From: Aplysia californica
Taxonomy: Eukaryota
Assembly (NCBI RefSeq): GCF_000002075.1
Contig: NW_004797613.1
Coordinates: 66,763-130,762 of the forward strand
Direction of reading: 5' to 3'
DNA: 64,000 nucleotides
Each line of letters starts with the position of its first letter. Position 1 is the stretch's first letter. The notes below the pieces were generated by a model. It saw only the letters and a list, made by a program, of their open reading frames with translations, was not told where the DNA came from and ran no database searches. This document shows positions 13,601 to 48,207 of this stretch, in pieces. The position numbers and the translations under genes are program-made.

Positions 13601-16600
13601 CCGATCATGTAAAGAATCCTTTGAGAAAGAACTTAAAAATGATAGGAACGGAGATTGTGTCCAATATAAATATGAGTCCAAAGACTCCGAAAATGATTCA
13701 TGTTCAAATGGTGATAACCACAATTACTCAAACTGTGACAGGAAAAGCAAAAATAAATATACGGACAAAACAAAAAGCCCTCACAGTTGTGCTACGCCTG
13801 TGTGGTGCGATGAAAAACATGAAAAAGAAACAAAAGAGCATAGAACTCATTTTGATTCTAATATGGGCAGCATTGAAAGAAAAAGAGTTGATGTTGGTGA
13901 GAGCGTAAATATGCCTTATATTCATGGTTACAAAGAAAATATTGAGGAGTTTAATCAACAAGGTGATCACACTATAAGTTCCCCCCACCAATCAAGCTGC
14001 TGTTTGAAGAAAGAGCTAATTGAAAACAGTGGGTCTCCCGCACAAGAGCGCCAGCTGTTCAGCGACCAAAGCCTTTTGAGACCAAACTCGGATGAGCAAT
14101 TTTTGCCACTGGACACGCCCCTGTGTACTAACCAGACCGTTCCTGATAACACACCAAATGCTTCCAAATGTGGATCTGCTTGTAGTCTATCAGAGAGTCC
14201 AGACCAGAGACAACAAGGTACCAGTGATATCGCAGGAGTATCGCCAAGAGAAAGTCAATCGAAATCATCTGAAGAGGGAGTTGCCATTGGACATTTGTTG
14301 GAGTTGCCAAGTAAACAAAACCAAGGGAAAGAGGAGGACAGCGATCATTGGGATCGTATACGAGCAAAATTTGAATTGTTTCAAGAAAGAAAAAATCTCC
14401 AATCTTACACAAACGGTGGAAGTTTCAAAACAGCAAGCAGATCCTTGAGACAGAGTATTAACTCCCGAATAGAGACGCTCAATAAGATGCTTGTGTCCAC
14501 AACACGTAGTGAAAGAGCTGGCGTTGTTGGGAACCCACGACGTACCAAACAGAGCACCAATATGACGAAAAACTTATCCTCCCAGTCTTCCTCTACGTCA
14601 AAGATACCTTACAATAGTCGTCAGGGATCCCATCATAAAGGAAAGGATGGCTTTGTATTGTCAAGTGATGCCCAAGGAGCACAAATCACTGAGCATGTCA
14701 CTGAAAAAGACTTTACTCCAAACGTGCCGTTCGACAGTTGTATCACAGTCACCAAAATTCCGGTGCGTGCAAAGGGGAGGCCATCTCTTCAGGAAGCGGT
14801 GCAAGCGAATGCTTACAGTAATAAACAGCAAAAGGACACAAGCAAAAAGAAATATTTCAGTAAAGGTGAAAGGCAACCCTTGACCTGCCCCGAATTCCAG
14901 CCCAGAAAACGATACTCTGCTGAAGAAAACACACGGACAAAATTTAGTAGTGAAGAGTCAATGAATAAATCAAACAATGCCAGTGGCGACTCTTGCACAA
15001 ACAATGTAAGAGATACAAACCTCGTCCCCAATGACAGTTTCACACAAGATATTTTCCTCGGAAGTCCTCGGGACCTACAACTGGCCGTGACGTCCCCTAA
15101 AGAAGATACTGGAGATACAGAAGGAGGAGCGTCGGCCAATAACATAAACCAAAACTCCCACAAAGGAGATGACGTTTGTGTGGGACTAGTCAAACATGGA
15201 AGCAGCATTTGTTCCGAGAACGATTCTCCATCCATCGGTACGTTACAGACTGATTTGAAATTCGAATGTGCTGATATCTGTGCACGGTGCCTCGAAACAG
15301 AACTTCATGTTAGCGCAATGGGAGTATCTCCTGTGTTACACTGCTTGTTTGAACAAAATGCAAATCTTAAAAAGTCAAACCTGCTAGTACTGAATAAGAC
15401 TGAGGGGTATCCAGACGGTTCTTGTGCACCGTCACATCTGTTCGACGTTGCATCAACAAAAATGTATAACATTCAGGCGTCTACTACCTCCTTAACCCCG
15501 GAGCAAATTTTAGAGGTACCGGTATCTGTAATAAAGTCTGAGCCCCCTGGTGGAAACTATGAGCATCAAAGGAAAGAAATCACGTCGGTTCTTCCTCGAA
15601 AATTGGCTAGGTTTATGGACGCAAAACAACCTAAACAAGCTGGTCTGTGCATCATGGCAAAGCAGACAAAGAATCAAGACAAAATGACCATTGAAAACAC
15701 AAAGACAGGTGCACGTAACCTATATGAAAACATCTCTGGTGAGTTTGGATTTAAAAAGACAAGCAGGAAAAACTACAAAACATTGGTAGCTGAAGCAAGA
15801 GCCGGAATTGAACAAATCCTCAGTCGGAACGATTCTCGTTCTGAAACGAGTCGTGCCATTAAATCAGATAAGACCTTACCCAGCCAATATTCCAATATTT
15901 CAGAAACAACGCCCCGTTATGGCTCAGATAGGTCAACACAATGTGTCCAGACTGATTATGTAAAAAACAAAAGTGCTAAGTACACCACTACCGCAGGTCA
16001 AGCTACCACGCCTACTTCCCGAACATCACCACAGCAACTGCAGCAGGACTCTACTAGTGATTCAAACAAAACCCCCGATGAAACACAATATTTTAAAAAC
16101 CTGCTCACAGAGAAGCAAGTTCTGCAGGATGAAAACGGGAACAACTCTAAGGGCTCAGGAACAAGTTTGGCTCATTCCAAATGTACCGGTCTTCGCTCAC
16201 ATGGCAACAAATCAGACTTGCTTAGTAAAGCCGCAACTCCTTCTCCTATCGGCAACGGTGGTCAGGCAGAAGAGAAGAAAATAAAGCCTAATAAAATCAG
16301 GTCTCTAAAAGAAACGCTTAAAACGGCAAAGAATTGTCGAATACCAATTCGAAAATTTCAGTCACAGTCTTCCACGAACCCGTCCACTCAGTGTGAGTAC
16401 ATACAACTGAACAACATTCAGAGCATTGTTATCGCTTCTACCGTCGATAGACAAAACCGCAGGACCAGGGAACTTGCACAGATTTCCTTTAAAAGTTGCA
16501 AGATGAAAAATGAAAGGCTTAACAATTGCTTAATGACAGCTTCCAATAACATCAACATTGTTAATACTGATGGCGTACTCACGTTAGAGATTTCTGCTCA

Positions 16601-19600
16601 GTCAGACTCAGTTGCTGCCGAGGGGGAAGGAGAGTGTGCAAGCAACAGACATAAGTATAAAAAGACTGCAGTGTCGGGGCACCACTCTCCTCAAACAGAA
16701 AGCAAAAGTAAACAACATTCAAAACTACCCTGTGTATCCTTCGGTAAAGGTTCGAAAGTTCTGTCACAAGGAGTTGCTTCAAACACAAAGATTCCAAGAT
16801 GTCAGACAGCGAAGAAGAGCAGAGAAACAATGAAAAAGGACATCAAAGAATGCAAAAAGTGCGAAAGTGAAGCTGAGTCTGGTGGTAGAGAACACTATGG
16901 AGCCAAAGAAATACTGCACAAAACAACAGTTTCTTCAAATAAAGAAAATACAGTTTCTTCTGATAAAATTGCTGATCAAACAAAGGACAATGTAAAAAAA
17001 ATAGCATATGCCAGACAGTCTGTTCCGATAACTGCCTCAGCGAAGCTACCCTGCAAACAAGGGCTTGGCCGAAGTCCTGCGAAAGAGAAAGATGCTCTGG
17101 TGGGTCTTGTGACAAGTACAGCTGTCAAACTTCCTGCGAGTGAGAAGGGCTCCAGACTTGAAACGGACTGCTCCACCAAGACAGAGTCTTTGCTGGCCAG
17201 ATGTGAACTGTTTAGCGCGTCCACACCATCAGAAGGACATCGGTTCTCGGAGGCTGAGTCTCTTCAGGAGTATGTGGAACTCGAAGACTGTCTTGTGAAG
17301 TACCAGAGAGATCCATGCGAATCCTGCTTCTCCCAAAAAGAAGTGTACCAAAGTTGTGAAAGTCGGATCAGTCACAGCCCCGTCAGGGTGGACGATCAAA
17401 CACAGCAAGTCGAAGATAATGTAAATCAAAAGAAAATAATAATACCGGTGCATGCAAGTGCTGGCTCTGAGTTTCCAACTTGTCAAAATCAAGCTGACAA
17501 TTGTGAGGTAAGAGTGAGGGAAGAGTCTCGAAAGGAAGATAGCCAAACTGAAAGAAAGCCAGCAGTGATATCAGTAGTCTCTGACAACGATATCTCACAA
17601 GATCTTGCGAATCGACATTCTGTCCAGAGTTCACAAGCAACGCAAGATGAGGCATTTGAACCAGGCACTTCTACTTCAACATTTTCGCCAGGTGAAGAAC
17701 TCTCAAGAACTGACCATCTTAAATTTCCCATCGACCAGGTGGTGTCGGTTCATACGACAGCAAACGTCTGCTTTGAGAGTCAAACATACAACACCAGCAA
17801 AATCTCTACTGACGAATTTTCTGGTGGTTCTGGTTTGGATGAAACTCAAGAAGACATTCCGTCCAGCCTGCCTAACGTTACCCAAGTGGGCAGCTGTGGA
17901 AGTGTCGGGAGCAGTTCTTCAAGTTTACCGGACCAGCAGTTCCTTGACCTGATTCACAAACGGGCAATTAGTAAATCCAACGGGGAACTCACTGATCCAG
18001 AGAGCATTCACGAAGACGATGACCATCGGAGAATATTGAGTAACTGTCGGTTCGGGTTCGTACCAAGTGATGCTCACAAGAATCATGAAAGCAAAATACC
18101 TTTAAAACGTGAAAAGAAAACATGTTTGAAGTCATGTTTGAAGTCTACATATAGTTTGGAGGAATTTCCTAAACACTCTCAGGAATTAGATGATGATAAC
18201 GTGTGTCTTTTGAACTCCACCGACAAGCAACCTGAAAGGCACTACATGGGCGAATGTGCCAAGAGTACAGAGGAAGGTACTGATTACAAAAAGAACGAAA
18301 CCTGTTTAAGAAATACACTCAGTGGAAAAGCCTTCAAGAACTTTGAAAAGGACGGATATTCAGAAATTGAATCGATGCACGACTTTGGAGAACACTCAAA
18401 TGCGTTGGAAAATATGGAAAACGCTGAGTCCCGTGTAGATGACGTTATGGTAGCTGCCCCAGAAACTAACGAAGAGAACATCATGGCATTGAAAACAAAT
18501 ATCACTGTTAATAGTTTAGGCATTAAACTATGTCACAGAGCTTGCGATCAGGACAATAACATGACTTTACCACCCACTACTGGCGTTGTCGCGGAGTGCC
18601 ACAGTCACTTTTGCCCCAAAATGTCGGCGGTGTCTCCCAATATCCCCGAAACGCTACCGGACAAAAGGAAGCCGCCGACAAAACTCGCCGAGAAGTTCAC
18701 CCTGACATCAGATGAGTCATCAGATAGTTTTGCTGTTCTAGAAGTCCACGAAGATGTCAAGAAAACGGTCAACAATGATCACGTGACGACACCGGTAACA
18801 CAAATCAACGACCACTCTGTCATCGATCAGCAACCTTCCGCCTCAGCAGTGTCTGAACGTGCAGCTACTGGGGTTGAACATCAGAAAGGGAACTCTCCAG
18901 CACTCTCCACTCAGCACAACACAAACAAGAGAGAATGCATTCCAAGCCAGAGTTCGAATCACAGCTCGATGGAAACGCCTAGCTCATCCAACGGTTTGAG
19001 AGACGAAAAAAACCCGGGAGCGACGTCACCATCAACTCCAAAGGCCGTAATTTACTCGTCTGCAGAGATCCCAGAGTTGGGCGAGAAGGTGAGGTCTAAC
19101 GACATGCAGGACGATCAGAAATGCAGCGGGGGGAGGGGGGGGGTTCCCGACAGACACAATTGAGATCATTTATTGGGCGGGATACCGACTCTGCCTGTCA
19201 GAATCAGCCCTGGCTGAGAGGGATACAAGGATACAACATCTTAGCAGAAAGACCGAGATATTCGATAATAATGTACTCCCAACTCGGGAATCGAACTCGT
19301 GTTCTACGTGCGAGAGAGAAGCGCTTAACCGCTACACCACAGACGTCGGTAACGTAACGTTACATACTACGTTTGACATACATGTATATACTTACGCATG
19401 TACCAACTTAACCATGTCTTACCGTTCGGTCTGTCTTCAGGAATAGTGGATCCCATTCAGGCCAAGTTGGCCCTGACAGGCAGATTCTGAGTTTTAAAAA
19501 TCTGAATACCCCCCGCCTTTCCCATAGTTTAGCTTTAGTAAGAGTCAAGAGTATAACGGGCAGAGCTTGTAACATAATTAGGTCATACAAGTGTTGACGA

Positions 19601-22655: not shown

Positions 22656-33576
<10,921 letters not shown>

Positions 33577-40490: not shown

Positions 40491-42297
40491 TGCTGAGGGA
40501 GAAATGATAAAGTTAAAAATTAACAACAAAAATGTTAGAAGAGGAAAACCTTGCCAACTGCTATGGTACATATAGGTCACCACTTGGCGAATGAGGGACA
40601 CAGTGAGTTCGCATTGTCATCCATTATGGACTGGGCTACAGACAGAACTTAAATAGTTTATAATTTTAATTACAGTGATGGCTCATCTCACACGATTTGT
40701 GTGTGAGTGGTGGGGGAGCTTATAAGTTATGAGGGATCACATGCTTGGAACCTCACCAGCAGCTGAAAAATTATCGTTACCAATAGGTCAAAATGGATAA
40801 ATGAATGATTCATTCACTGGTGGGACTAACAATAACAACAGGACTATGACGGCTCATCCACTGCGTCAAGAACCAATACATAATTTATGACAAAGCGTCG
40901 GGCCTTGAGAGGTTTACGTGGCCATCTTAGACAGAAATCTTTTGTTTTTGGTTGACAAAATGGTGTCCACAGCTGCATTGGACAGGTGACTGTTTTACGC
41001 AGTGAATTTATAAAATAGCATAAAATGCAAGGCAGGGACCTAGAAAGTGGCCGTCGTGGCATGTTTGACTTTTGTATTTTAAATTAGCATCAAATTTTGT
41101 GTTCCCCCGTACTCTATACTTTCAGCTTTAAGTGCCAAGACTTCATACTCCCTTTCATGTCAACCGACTGTAACAACCATATTGACAAGAAAGCCATGCC
41201 ATTTTACATTATTTTAAAATTATAACTACACTACGATAGCTTTGAATGCTTTGAATTTGTAGTAAATTTGACTGTAAGACTGATGAAAGATTTTAAATCT
41301 GGGATTATAGAAAAATGTATGAATCGCTGTTAAATATTTAATTTTGAAATGACTGAAATTGCTTTGTTGGGTGCTGTAATTTTTAAAAAATAAACATCTC
41401 AAATGGGGTATGAATTGTTGATTTAACCCTTTCACTGCAGTATAATCGTACCGATATTTCACCACTGTATATCTCATACACCGGTACAACCGGGGAGGAG
41501 GGGGGGGGNNNNNNNNNNNNNNNNNNNNNNNNNNNNNNNNNNNNNNNNNNNNNNNNNNNNNNNNNNNNNNNNNNNNNNNNNNNNNNNNNNNNNNNNNNNN
41601 NNNNNNNNAATGGCTGAAATGGCAGGGGTATATAAGGGAATTAAGGGAGCATGAGGTGCCAAATTCGATGATCGTCGAAAAACCAAGTTGCATTTCGTTT
41701 AACAATTCGCCGTCTGACTTTTAAAATGTTCAGCTCCCATAACTCATTATTATATATATATAACTCATTATTATTATATATATATATATTTATATATATA
41801 TATAAATTTATAGCTGTAGACCGATATTTTAACCCTTTCAGTGCGATTTCCAACAGTCGTCCATATACGGGTGCAAGGCCAAATTCGACGATCGTGGAAA
41901 ATCAAATTGCGTTACGTAGCTCGTGTGGCTTTTAAAACTAGATCTATCAGCTGAAGGACTACATTAATTTTTCAGTCATTATTCGAAATCGGGGGAAAAA
42001 AATCTGTTCTGTCATGTCTTTTTGTACAGTAGCGAAAAATTGTGGGGGTTTTCTGATTTAGTGCATGGTACTCCTGGGGTTTGCTAAGAATGTTAGGGTT
42101 GGCACTAAAGGTTAAAGATCATCGTCACCTCCATCTTTCTCTTTCTTCATTTGTCACCCTTCTTGGGTTGTTTTGTTGGTTATTCTTCTTGTTTTTTTGT
42201 TGTTGTAGTTGTTTTTTGTGTTGTTGTTTGTTTGTTGTTGTTTTTTGGGGGGGCTGGTTTTTTTTGTTGATATTTCAGCTTTTACTAAGTTTTGAAT

Positions 42298-42382
42298 CCC
42301 CCCCAAATGAACCCACCTTTTCGTGGTGGGGGGGTTTAGTACTCTTCGAATAGGAAAAGAAAAAGAGGAAGCTAACGGGTCA
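42298..42382 (+). ncRNA. HDV-like self-cleaving ribozyme fold (L1Tc/ingi Pr77-type hallmark) at the 5' end of an Ingi-like LINE
   Basis: P1 C7 (42298-42304) / G7 (42328-42334); P3 ACC/GGT closing the 7-nt loop TTTTCGT; P4 CTCTT/AAGAG with an AGTA/GAA internal motif; J4/2 GCTAA (C42372); P2 TGA(A)CCC/GGGTCA. Confidence 0.72.
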
Positions 42383-44775
42383 AGGGATGACCCCGAAAAG
42401 AGACATATTACTTTACTATCATGTATCTTTCTCTTGCTATTTATTGTTTTTATTGTTTTACTTTATTACATTTATTAACTTTTCTTTTCTCCTCTCTCCA
42501 TCGACAACCTTTTTTTCACCTGGAGTTGGGACGGGTATTGGTGGGGTGGAAAGCAGAGGCTCATTGTCAGCACTGTACTGGAGGTGACTTTACGTAGGGA
42601 ATACCCAGCTACATACATGTATTAATCATGCACTTATCGGAGAGCCCTATGACTGCGGAGAAGGTGCAGAGACCATTTACGTCTTGCTTCTTGACAACAT
42701 TAACCCTCTGGGATCTGCCATGCCTTCCACTGCCCCCATCTCTCCGATGAGAGGACTCAAGATTGCTCTGGGAGGGGGGTAAATCTAGCTTCCAATTGGT
42801 ATTATTATTACTATTAGTATTATTATTATTATATTACAATTTCTGTACTTCAGCAACACACAGCAACTATTCTCCTAATAGCGTCTTTCTCTTCTTTATC
42901 TCCTCAAACAACTTCTCAATATAATACAACAGACACCAACATACCCATTCATTTTTCTTACAATCTCTCTGTGATGGAGTTGGGTTTTTGTTTGTGGTAT
43001 TGCACTGCCACTGCTTTATCTCCTACCCCGGGATGGAAGGAAAATCACAGAACCACCAGTTTTTTATGCTATTCACGAATGATAGAATCCCATACGAGCT
43101 GAGACGCCGCCTCAGTAATCAAGGTCTCCCCCTGGTCTTACTGGGCAACCAAGCTGGCCTGGTGGATGGTTATTGGAAGAAAAAGAAAATCAGAAAGCAG
43201 AGAAAATGGAAAAACAAGAAGAAAACACCCCCTGCAACTGGCAACGGAAAAGAGAAGCTTATAGACTTCAATATTCTTCTGGCAAATGTCTGTGGCTTGG
43301 ACAAGAAGAAAACACAATTGGGGAAAGTTTTGTATGAAAAGAAAGTCCACATTGCTCTATTACAGGAAACTCTCCATTTATACTGTGACATAAACATCAC
43401 TGGGTATACCCCTTATCCATGTAAATGTGAAGGTTGCCAAGGGATTATGACCTATATCAGAAATGACATCCAGGGTGAAGTAGAGCTCCTTAATTGGCAC
43501 CCCACAGACACTTATGAAGTCACCCTGTGGTATGGCAACAGCAAGCTCATACTTTATAACATCTATTGTCCCCCAAGTAACACTCTGAACTTCATGGAAC
43601 AGAGCACTATCTTTAAGAAGACGGTCATAGCTGGTGACCTTAACGGACACTCCCCCCTTTGGGGCTATGCTGACCAAAACAACACAGGTAAGAGGATTGA
43701 AAAACTATGTCAGTCCTCTAACCTCATCCTTCTTCAAGATGAAGATTCAATCAAAACACTTCTTCATAAGAGACATGGGACCCTCCACAGACCAGATCTC
43801 ACCCTGGTCTCTGCTGATTTACACAACTGCTGCAGTGAAGAGGTGCTAGATTGTATATCTAGTGACCTTCGTCCCGTTCTCACCAAAATCAGTATACTGA
43901 AACACAGACAAAGGAAAAGAAGAATCGGTTGGAACTTCAAAAAGGCAAACTGGGATCTCTTCAGAAAAACAGCTGAGGACACCGTTAAACTGGATGATCT
44001 AGACAATAAATGTATAGACGCCCTTAATAGTGAACTCACCTCCACCATTTTAGATGCTGCAAAGAAGAGTATCCCACAGGGGTTCAGAACCAACAATAAA
44101 CCCTTTTGGAATGAGTGCTCCAAATGCCAGACATGAATATGAGAAAGATCTAAAAAATATGGACAAGAAAATTAGATACAAAAAGGCCGTAGCACAGGCT
44201 AAACTTGTCACCAAGGAATCTAAGAAGGAAGCCTGGACTCAGAAGTGTGAGGGACTCAATTTACGTCAAGGTGGACGTGAAGCTTGGTCACTTCTAAATA
44301 ACCTCACTGGCGAAAAAAGGAAAGAAAACCCCAAACCACTACACACAGAAACCGAAGTTCTCACCAGCGAGTTCAAAAAAGCCGAACACTTCAATAAACA
44401 TTTTGCCTCCGTTAGCAAAAGCAGCAAAAGGAATGATCTGGACAGAGGTCTACTGAGTGTTCTGAAAGGAAAAAAGAGAGATTTGATGACACCGAGTATA
44501 TTCCAGGACTTCTTAACTAAGCGAGAGTTGGACTGTGCAATCAAGAAACTGAAGAAGCGAAAAAGTCCAGGTCCTGATAAAGTACACAATGAGATGCTAC
44601 AAAACCTTGGTGAAAAAGCCAAATTGCTACTTCTTAAGCTCTACAACAGAACATGGACTGAGGGAAATCTGCCTAAAGCATGGAAACTAGCCACTATAAA
44701 CCCAATCTTAAAGAAAGGAAAGAAGGCAAATGACCCTAAAAACTACCGCCCAATATCACTCACGTCCTGTATTGG

Positions 44776-45105
44776 TTAGGCTCTCGGACTCGCAACCGTA
44801 AGGTCATGGGTTCGAATCCCGTCAGGGGCCCGACGTTGTGTCCTTGGGAAAGGCACTTTGCACAAATTTTCCTCACTTCACCCAGGTGGAAATGGGAACC
44901 CAGCTATAGACAGAGAAAGATCTTGTCAGTTTGATAGTGTTTGAGCGCGTGAAATCCGCAGCTTGCACTGTATGCTTCCGCGGAAGCTGAGAATGTTTCG
45001 GAGTGTTCTATGGTCTGCTGGGGTAATAATATAGTGTAAAGCGCATAGAGCCTGCTGTTGAGCGGGAATATGCACTATACAAATGCTGTTTATTATTATT
45101 ATTAT
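44776..45105 (+). mobile_element. SINE family C inserted into the Ingi-like RT
   Basis: TSD TATTGG at 44770-44775 and 45106-45111; the LINE reading frame continues on the far side. Confidence 0.88.
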
Positions 45106-45140
45106 TATTGGCAAGTTCTGCGAAAGAATCCTCAATTCTC

Positions 45141-46236
45141 TTTTACAAAGGTTTAAAAACCTAATGATTTCATTCTGAAATTCCTAGAAGCAGTGCTCCA
45201 CATTCCCTCCTTTGGACTCGACACCTTTTTAACGCGTCGTTCGAAATGTTCTGTGGTGCCCTTACACATGGACCTGTTAAACCACGAGTCTTTAAAGCCA
45301 CATACACTGTACATGTTCACTAAGAAGTGGCTTCTAGAGACAATAGAGTGGGGTGCCCAATAGACAGCATTTTTGGAGTTACCATATCCCCCAGGGTGAA
45401 AATGGGCTTTGCACTAAACCAAATGTCATCAAGGAAATGATCCCTCTTTACAAGACAATCGAGGAATCATGAACTCATTGTCATGCTCTAATCCATATCA
45501 TCTCGGCCTAGCGAAGACGAACATGGTATAGCCGTAGGTTAAGATCTACCATGAGAATGCAGACTGTTGATGTGTAGGAAAGTCCTAGCTGCAGATCGTC
45601 TTCGAAATGTCTCATGGGACTCAGCACTCTGGTGACGTTTTTTTTTAAAAAGGGCTGTGCATGGTGCGTGTTCGACCTGAAGTGGTCATTTTTTTAAAAA
45701 GATTTTTAGTTCTGATTCGTTATAGATCCAAACTGACGGAACCACTCTACTCATGATGCCAAAGGTCTTGAGGGCTCCTAAGCATTCTCTCCATGCCGTG
45801 CGTAGAACTTACGAAATGTCAGGGATTGTGAGTTTGTGGAGAGGTAATGATCAATACAAAAAGCTATCGGCTCTTTACTAAATGTAGCCATGATCTCAGT
45901 TGGCAAACAAAATTTTGGAAAAATAATATCTGCTGACTTCTGTTGACTTGTTAGACTGCTGTAGCTTGCAATTTGGCGCGATTGTTGTTTAAGTTTTAGT
46001 GATAGGCCTAATATGAACTGGTGCGTCATGCTATGAAAATGGCGACAAGGTTGAAAATGGGTTGTTTTTTTTAATATGGGATATAGAGCAAAACCATTCA
46101 AAGGACTTATCTAAAATACATATCAGAAAAATTCCTTTTGGCTTTCAAACGTTATGTTCAAATCTGAAAAGCAAAACTTCAGTATGGAGGGAGATATTTA
46201 CAAAACAAGTTGTGAAGTTTTTTTTTGATCACCCTG
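45141..46236 (-). mobile_element. Degenerate Tc1/mariner DNA transposon, 5' half
   Basis: TA|CAGGGTGATC terminus at 46236; MATFSKEPIAFCIDHYLST.S...RKF N-terminus and frameshifted IWFS..HF.LGGYGNSKN..YW segment resembling the first catalytic Asp region. Confidence 0.65.
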
Positions 46237-46663
46237 TATATAGACAATTGGATGGAAAGAGCGAATTCTACAACACAAAAACAAAGCGAGATGTGTTGTT
46301 TTTCTTACACACTTCGTACGAGACCTGATGCGTCGATTCGGAACGCTTGTGTCAGTTCTATACACGTTGTTAACATTGTTTATAGCTTCTTCTACCCGAG
46401 TCTTGTCTATGGACAATTCCATTTCTTCATTTGTCTTTCTATTGATATATTATATAGTTTGATGAGAAGCGCAAGCTTTGTTACCGATGTGCGAGACAAA
46501 GCCAACTTGTAGAATCTGAGCATTTGTTCAGCCTTAGTTCTTTCTAGTTATTTACATCATTACGTCTTGTTCTCATGAAGGTTTTGTTAGTAGATGAATT
46601 TATCTCACCGTTTCTCTTTCTACCAGTCTCTTACAATAAGCGAACAATTATCAAAAGATTGTG

Positions 46664-47185
46664 GGGGGGCTCTGGTGGCATAGAGGTTAAGGTGTTCGCC
46701 TCTCATTCAAAGGTTCTGGGTTCGAATCCGGGTTGCGACCGAAAAATGTTCTTCTCTAACATTGTCTTCTTTCACCTCCTTTCCTGCTCTCTAGCAATAC
46801 TCTGCCGTCTGCTTTCATCTCCACTTTCTGCCCCCACCCCCTCGCCTCCTTTGCGCCCTCCTCTAGGCTCCTTACTCTTTCTGAGGTCTTTCTACTGCTA
46901 CTCCTTGTCTCCTTCTTATTTCTCTTTTTCAGCCACACCCTTGATTTTCTGGTAGGAAAGATCTACACCAAGTCTTCTCAGACAAGGGCGAGAAATCTTG
47001 GAGGTCCCGTGTGCAAGTTGCGCACGTTAAAGATCCCTTGGTGGATCGATAAGAGTAGGCTTCGGCCACCACCCGCGCAAAATTCAAAATTTCCTACCAA
47101 CTGAAAATGTTTAACGTGTCCCGCGCACTCATATGACCTTATGCAGTTGCGAGCGCCATAAAACACTTACACAAAAAATGTTTTG
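46664..47185 (+). mobile_element. SINE family A, full length
   Basis: A box TGGCATAGAGGTTAAGG, B box GGTTCGAATCC; TSD AAAAGATTGTG at 46653-46663 and 47186-47196. Confidence 0.92.
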
Positions 47186-48207
47186 AAAAGATTGTGACCT
47201 GTGATGTCCTGCACAGGATAGACCAATTTTCTTCAGTGTATGTGGTACATACAGTTAGCAGTCAAGGGGTTAAAAAACATGGTTCAAAACTCCACATTCT
47301 TATAGAATAAGTTAAATAAAATGAGACAAAACCAAACCATAATAGTAAAACTCCAGGAGTAGACTAGTCTCTATAACTACAAAAAAAAGACACGAAAGAA
47401 ATTTCTTTTTATGTCTCTGTGAACGCTTCTTTCGAAATGAACAATGTATTACTGTTGATTTTTTATCTATGCACATTGTATGTCATACTAATATTTATCT
47501 TTTTATAACTTTAAATATGTCAGCTTTAATTTTCTCTTCATATTAAAACTTTAAAGTTCATTTCTAGTGTTTTTACCTTTCCTGCTCAAAGACAAGAAAG
47601 TATTTTGTTATCCTATCTTCATTTCACTCTCACATAGAGCAAAGCAGCTGTGTGGGCAGTGGCCTGGTGCAAGCTTCCATGTCTGCTGTCTCTTGAGAGA
47701 AAGATTAGCAACTTGGGTGTGCCACCTCTTGGCTGTCAGCCTCAGATAGGCCTACTTCTCTTATCACACCATATATATGCAGCTTTTTGCCTTGAACGCT
47801 GCCGATGTGAAGCCCTAACACAGCCAACCGCTATATGATATGAAGAATCCAAAAAGATGAGGCAAAGGAAATGATGGAATTTAGAGAACAATAAGAAGAT
47901 TCTTGAACTGAGCTTTCAATATGTGCCTAACCAGTACACTGCAAATGCCGATCCTGTTTTTAACTTAGATAAACCTATTTTAACATTTATTTTGTAGTCC
48001 ACCTCTTGCCTAGTTTTTCAAGTTAGAAGAAAGTCTTTAGGGTCCTTATTTCAACTTTACTGTTCGCAAGATTGTGTCAATTTTGTCTAATGGCGCAATG
48101 AACAGAAAATTTGACATCCTTTAATCTCTTGTTTGAAGAACAATTAATGTAGCCTACAAGGTTTAGATCTAATGATTCTATGTTTCCACAGGTTGCAAAG
48201 AAGAAAG

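Follow-up and report, generated by a model that had tools for sequence, protein, structure and literature searches.

The window, by which we mean the whole 64-kb stretch of DNA analyzed here, carries on its forward strand a partial LINE copy headed by a candidate HDV-like ribozyme. Elsewhere, an unbroken frame of 2829 codons occupies 10674-19160 (+ strand), and the RT fragment on the minus strand at 26782-27327 differs very little, by eye, from the Nimb element I-3_AC (PMC3708506). Exons of a PIG-M-like GPI mannosyltransferase (PF05007, GT..AG joints) lie at 48190-51590 on the same strand as the LINE copy. One contig extends a further 91 letters 5' of 48190, and this extension has no place within 42270-52500; the LINE copy may therefore occupy a 5' intron of the PIG-M-like gene, in sense orientation. 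The features of the LINE copy are as follows.

42279..42296, + strand: likely left target-site duplication, decayed; 15 of 18 letters match 45140-45157
42298..42382, + strand: HDV-like ribozyme fold of the L1Tc/Pr77 subtype, as judged from pairs, 5' boundary and covariation; its first base is element +1
42298-42304/42328-42334, + strand: P1, 7 C-G pairs
42308-42314/42377-42382, + strand: P2, requiring a bulged A in the window copy
42315-42317/42325-42327, + strand: P3 (A-U, C-G, C-G)
42318-42324, + strand: L3, seven bases
42320:42335 (+23/+38), + strand: P1.1 position, U·U in the window copy
42322..42325 (+25 to +28), + strand: CGTG, matching in position the downstream promoter element of L1Tc and overlapping L3/P3; promoter role putative
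about 42337-42346/42363-42371, + strand: P4
42372 (+75), + strand: catalytic-position C
42377..42393, + strand: 6-bp hairpin competing for the P2 3' strand in minimum-energy folds; predicted off-switch once transcribed
42383..43065, + strand: remaining 5' UTR, aligning colinearly to full-length copies at 93-94%; no long ORF in the five copies scanned
43066..44775, + strand: 5' part of the ORF, with start codon at 43066, APE at about 43270-43875, a frame break near 44100-44130 and the start of the RT domain
43095..43128, + strand: candidate H-type pseudoknot, with S1 at 43095-43098/43111-43114 (one pair broken in the window copy) and S2 at 43101-43105/43124-43128
44776..45111, + strand: SINE-like repeat in the RT frame, with a (TTA)n tail and a 6-nt duplication; very high contig depth
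45112..45140, + strand: last LINE bases, ending at about element nucleotide 2525 of 4720 (compared with full-length copy L034)
45140..45157, + strand: likely right target-site duplication, decayed

A preliminary description of this DNA had claimed helices in the order P1-P2-P3-L3-P3'-P1'-P4-J4/2-P2', with a catalytic-position C at 42372. All of these helices were found at 42298-42382 in the nested double-pseudoknot order (7-bp P1, 3-bp P3, P2 and P4), and the C was confirmed as +75, the C of GAAGCUAA, followed by N-A in J4/2. This word is intact in 37 of 40 copies of the window element's family, which is designated family B (sister families are A, C, D and E). P2 forms five contiguous pairs in the family majority sequence, compared with the bulged helix of the window copy. 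The weak P1.1 suspected earlier is real in the window copy, where +23/+38 is U·U; most family copies have U-A (35/40 with U at +23 within the majority L3, 35/40 with A at +38), and L1Tc has A-U. An APE/RT frame does lie downstream, as claimed: its ATG is at 43066, 768 nt away, and its APE domain matches PF14529 (E 4e-15).

The core pattern gave 20 exact matches in the genome and 0 when reversed, so its occurrence exceeds chance. A covariance-model search had been suggested earlier as a check. The best Rfam match, RF02682 HDV-F-prausnitzii, starts at the first base (24.7 bits, E 0.041), but the score is below the cut-off of 44, and for 42298-42382 Rfam returned no family above its cut-off and no Pr77 model. 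The P1/P3/L3 core aligns to RF02682 and the 3' half does not. The nested minimum-energy fold of the stretch is unremarkable (z −1.12), as expected for a pseudoknot. With a sub-threshold Rfam score and this z value, the window ribozyme sequence taken singly is suggestive, short of proof. The P2-competing hairpin, scored present in 33 of 41 family rows, could block folding into the active form.

Copies were collected by a DNA search of the element's own 927 Mb genome, and the best 40 of 100 candidates were scored. The 39 copies other than that in the window are 91-96% alike, and 34 of these begin aligning within 3 nt of C42298. At 22 of 38 loci examined, an exact target duplication of at least 10 nt ends within 2 nt of the C-run. 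These observations support the assignment of C42298, the element end proposed in the preliminary description, as the 5' end of a 4.7-kb single-ORF APE-RT-RNase H LINE family. Full-length elements of ∼4.72 kb, identified in extended sequence of 20 copies, run from the C-run to a (CAA)n tail; they have a 770-nt 5' UTR, one ORF encoding APE, RT, RNase H and a C-terminal zinc finger, and 11-16 nt target duplications. The single ORF with APE, RT and RNase H (E 9e-13) and without ORF1 was found in full-length copies L031 and L034, in keeping with the Ingi-like architecture claimed previously. Automatic classification of 38 loci placed 11 as extending to the 3' end. Ordinary 5' truncation is common too, yet 5' ends outnumber the element middle: a first look returned 795 candidates for the 3' end, 52 for the RT start and 100 for the 5' end. 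Contigs of four runs cover the family 5' UTR in the letters of other copies; ends and levels are unreadable from contigs.

The commonest C-run length is 7, equal to that of P1 (15/40 copies), and in 16/40 copies the run is 8-25 nt long. A clean cut at +1 does not by itself explain these longer runs. At eight 5' junctions (L006, L013, L015, L016, L020, L023, L025 and L030), extra C, in runs up to 25, stands between the target duplication and the element; such residues could be due to addition during reverse transcription or to homopolymer slippage.

The window copy is likely an old, 3'-truncated insertion because its frame is broken, a SINE has inserted into it, and the LINE stops at 45140 with an 18-mer matching the upstream flank. 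This 18-mer (45140-45157) agrees at 15 of 18 letters, and none of 61009 other window 18-mers matches as well. The copy is without the RT core, RNase H, zinc finger and (CAA)n tail, and it cannot move. Its 5' UTR is 3.7% diverged, compared with a family median near 2.3%, and four differences from the family majority, including +38, fall in the first 42 bases. Judging from its U·U at P1.1 and its bulged P2, its predicted ribozyme is likely slow or dead. Just before the ORF (42974-43065), the upstream frame of the family stops directly before the ATG; the window copy is without that stop, and 4 nt are missing upstream.

L1Tc has CCACC at +16-20 and CGTG at +25-28 (PMC4748587), and its P4-flanking and J4/2 words can be taken from primers and a mutant list (PMC3185411). 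The L1Tc motifs that the preliminary description named (CCACC, CGTG, and the P4 and J4/2 words) are present here in the same register when checked against these two papers, and by eye the first 77 nt follow Pr77 in sequence and register. L1Tc and family B share C at +1, a 7-bp P1, the P3/L3 register, CGTG at +25-28, a one-pair P1.1, the P4 flanks and J4/2. From +16 to +49, 27 of 34 letters are alike, by eye, between L1Tc and the family majority. The L1Tc ribozyme cuts at +1 with a one-pair P1.1, and sequence downstream reduces its activity through a refolding in which P2 is lost (PMC3185411, PMC3383444). A downstream refolding that drops P2 is also predicted in family B, and both elements have target duplications near 12 nt. 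Three of the seven P1 pairs differ on both sides between the two, where the 5' letters of L1Tc pairs 6-7 are deduced from their partners. The earlier statement that P1 is fully co-varied was thus too strong, as only pairs 4-6 are double-sided changes and pairs 1-3 and 7 are identical C-G.

Unlike L1Tc, family B resides in an animal host and has a homopolymer P1 (C7/G7), U-A instead of A-U at P1.1, a longer P4 loop (85 nt total), a 770-nt 5' UTR, a (CAA)n tail in place of poly(A), and no 2A peptide, and its self-cleavage is predicted only. The Pr77 hallmark of the L1Tc/ingi clade is also described in PMC4035085, and Ingi is listed among clades with HDV-like ribozymes on the basis of trypanosome work (PMC5786205). 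HDV-like ribozymes on LINE 5' ends are already known, and a Pr77-type head on an animal Ingi is new. The literature covered describes neither such a head nor copies ended at the start codon; Ruminski 2011, Kojima 2011 (Vingi) and Repbase are outside this scope and could already describe such. The hallmark is not specific to trypanosomatids, and a known kind of ribozyme gains a new kingdom.

Genomic copies are uninformative for covariation because they are 91-96% alike and P1 is a homopolymer, so in this respect the check suggested earlier failed; across families it gave a signal. Metagenome contigs were scanned with only the unpaired core specified, leaving P1, P2 and P1.1 as N. The 23 hits form 11 groups, of which 10 could be scored; L137, cut off upstream, was excluded from group tests. 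P1.1, formed by the third L3 base and the first base after P1, is Watson-Crick in 23/23 (U-A, G-C and C-G; permutation p 0.0003, 10 groups). P2 averages 6.6 bp compared with 4.1 bp when partners are swapped (0 of 20000 permutations), and P1 averages 6.1 versus 5.6 bp (p 0.019), which is only marginal. These p values are generous because the groups are not independent lineages. Judged from these alignments, the HDV-like helices P1.1 and P2 covary across families.

Only one of the 23 hits has an APE/RT frame behind the ribozyme. This is L152 (699-3095, minus strand), a distant LINE in which a Pr77-type ribozyme directly precedes a 2A-like peptide, APE and RT, the L1Tc layout. Because 22 of 23 hits are without a recognizable LINE frame, the Pr77-type subtype is not LINE-specific, and since the subtype occurs outside LINEs, likeness to L1Tc need not imply shared descent. 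No tRNA genes were found beside the 23 hits, and the pattern had 0 matches in viral contigs. Ten near-identical Pr77-type folds (L141-L143, L145, L147-L151 and L153) lie on AT-rich metagenome contigs with no LINE frame or tRNA nearby.

No named L1Tc, ingi or Ingi proteins were returned by protein searches, and a protein atlas gave only generic RT/RNase H clusters. Among the RTclass1 entries displayed in PMC3708506, the closest RT by eye is that of I2_AC, a mollusc Ingi element, with 31 of the first 58 residues identical. I2_AC is not family B, but like the animal Ingi LINEs of RTclass1 generally it shares the single ORF with APE, RT and RNase H; no ribozyme is described for these LINEs in the excerpted literature. 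Vingi is defined by lack of RNase H (PMC13708176), and because RNase H is present here (E 9e-13), the predicted architecture excludes Vingi and supports Ingi. A 2A-like peptide precedes APE in L1Tc, ingi and Ingi-1_AC and is not universal as far as the sources show. The NPGP 2A motif is absent from family B and 46 long homologues, and a 2A-like peptide is present in L152.

An APE query of the same genome gave the further LINE families A, C, D and E. The frame of family A is unbroken over 1342 codons. In families A and C, the element begins exactly with a P1 that opens with G·U, J1/2 is 80 nt long and P1.1 is C-G. By reading of its sequence, family D starts on a similar canonical fold, which the descriptor did not call due to one P3 mismatch; in family E, the descriptor search gave no convincing HDV-like fold. 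In a quick RT tree, which contained no named Ingi reference and no RT match for family C, A and B group together with support (SH-aLRT 96), D is separate from them, and L152 is far outside. From this placement, close relatives differ in ribozyme subtype while the distant L152 shares that of family B; two histories would fit, an exchange of ribozyme heads or several replacements of the Pr77 type. In two loci of families A and C (L154 and L176), a short inverted repeat follows directly after the P2 3' strand, like the hairpin at 42377-42393.

The +1 end could in principle be set by an internal RNA polymerase II promoter, with the ribozyme fold secondary or used in read-through only. Pr77 is such a promoter in T. 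cruzi, where CGTG is needed for transcription (PMC4748587), and the same letters stand here at the same position. A promoter starting at +1 would give the same genomic boundary, so the boundary data fit either cause. However, CGTG is also conserved L3/P3 of the ribozyme, and families A and C have these letters some 100 nt from +1, beyond the 80-nt J1/2, with +1 still on P1. In this layout +1 tracks the fold, not the promoter spacing, and we regard a promoter-set end as quite improbable. Still less credence is given to a fold that no longer cuts and is kept for protein binding, RNA protection or translation initiation. HDV-like folds are reported to aid translation and to protect 5' ends (PMC6765202), and nested folds favor the competing hairpin, but the catalytic-position C and the one-pair P1.1 are both conserved and a purely structural role needs neither. 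Self-cleavage in the active family is preferred over both alternatives.

LINE copies normally lose their 5' end. We assembled 128 loci carrying 5' ends from four families (38 from B and 30 each from A, C and D), taking the best-scoring candidates per search and not a census. Short copies with an exact target duplication of at least 10 nt account for 42 of the 128, and 37 of the 42 end between −6 and +21 nt relative to the ORF start codon, a window picked after the data were seen. Two of the five outliers, L227 and L229, represent one duplicated insertion. The other loci run past the fetched locus (46), reach the 3' end (12), end at N (6), or are short without a clear duplication (22); 9 of the last 22 also end inside −6 to +21. 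Short copies overlap the target by 1-6 nt in 17/42 cases, and 13/42 have added C or CAA letters by a pattern-based count. In L215, the 5' UTR is joined to the last 16 nt of the true 3' end. The family apparently inserts its 5' UTR alone over and over, and this is the larger point: a third of the sampled 5' ends are those of copies without anything after the start codon, yet with target duplications.

A nucleotide motif some 25-60 nt after the ATG is kept in all four families, and family A reads it in another frame. Its pattern had 104 exact matches in the genome compared with 0 for the control. S2, a 5-bp stem left unspecified in the pattern, pairs at every position in 40 of 48 distinct genome contexts and shows three double-sided variants between families; in chance matches to prokaryote DNA, used as the control, it is fully paired in 0 of 120. 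S1 is a near-invariant 4-bp stem crossing S2, giving a candidate H-type pseudoknot; it is weakly tested since three of its four pairs are fixed by the search pattern. The short copies end just 5' of this candidate. Two other signals were considered. The idea that a conserved N-terminal peptide stalls the ribosome is weakened, since 10 of 12 family A copies read these letters in a different frame. An 8-mer shared in family B, considered as an internal mimic of the 3' end at which short copies stop, was rejected: the hot spot also occurs in family A, where the 8-mer is absent.

For the short copies only, the RNA may instead have been cut or ended near the start codon, for example through ribosome-linked decay at a junction of upstream-ORF stop and start, with the 5' fragments inserted afterwards. 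Ends cluster at the ATG in all four families, the family B upstream frame stops immediately before the ATG, and a two-codon upstream frame in family A overlaps its ATG. However, no such stop/start overlap was seen in families C and D, and the added C/CAA letters in 13 copies, like the true 3' end letters of L215, point to a jump from a real tail; this origin is possible but on the unlikely side. We consider it improbable that the short copies descend from a few non-autonomous masters like NARTc or RIME. Internally deleted non-autonomous families are known from both Ingi and Vingi (PMC5786205), and certain short copies stop at an identical position (three at +12 in family B), but overall the ends spread across about 25 nt, with a microhomology overlap to the target in 17 of 42. 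Moreover, a comparison of 30 family-B copies, made after six loci with N runs or rearrangements were set aside, gave no variant diagnostic of the 15 short copies; these do not form one clade, and in each branch they have subfamily variants in common with full-length copies. Repeated origin by way of a hold on the RNA at the pseudoknot remains the preferred account of the short copies.

We assign a probability of roughly 85% to the joint reading that the family has an exact 5' end on a Pr77-subtype fold, that this fold is a predicted self-cutter in the active family, and that UTR-only inserts arise through a hold at the pseudoknot. In the active family, the predicted cut just 5' of C+1 would likely free the element RNA from read-through transcripts. 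By analogy with HDV, C+75 would act as general acid/base, and the cut would presumably be co-transcriptional. Afterwards the hairpin at 42377-42393 may take the P2 strand, leaving P1 as a G-C stem over the uncapped 5' end, both as proposed for L1Tc. The element protein would hold the RNA at the pseudoknot just inside the ORF and near the tail, and reverse transcription would then start on RNA just 5' of the pseudoknot or jump to it from the (CAA)n tail. The L1Tc RT is reported to switch templates (PMC5814959).

A broader proposal, to which we give somewhat less than even odds, is that animal Ingi-type proteins in general grip their RNA beside its 3' tail at a conserved pseudoknot in the first 20 codons, such that reverse transcription often starts at, or jumps to, the start codon and only the ribozyme-headed 5' UTR is inserted. 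Elements of the NARTc/RIME kind would then arise again and again by an inherent route, and template choice would have a 5' cis signal, with ribozyme heads swappable between lineages. Short derivatives with both element ends have been reported for the clades Ingi, Vingi, RTE and R2 (PMC5786205, PMC3414825). NARTc, RIME, Vingi derivatives and R2 SIDEs are likewise short, keep a ribozyme-bearing 5' end and are moved by the parent protein (same sources). Unlike NARTc, RIME and SIDEs, the short copies described here have a 3' part of only 0-16 nt or CAA repeats, break at the start codon in four families, and were apparently made repeatedly, not amplified from one master. A 5' RNA pseudoknot has been proposed as a site for the R2 protein (PMC6765202), resembling the candidate here; R2 differs in clade and enzyme class, and binding in the present case is deduced only from short-copy ends. 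Should the pseudoknot prove responsible, it would account for the two-ended mini-elements of the Ingi group and would supply a 5' cue for template choice in a group now under development as gene-insertion tools, as is Vingi-1 (PMC13708176).

Individual loci show two further arrangements. In family C, nine loci (L285-L290, L295, L296 and L299) have the same upstream flank many times on two contigs and were apparently amplified in a larger tandem unit. The ends of two family-B short copies, L042 and L125, differ by a single base and fall some 120 nt inside the ORF, where an A-rich stretch codes for lysine.
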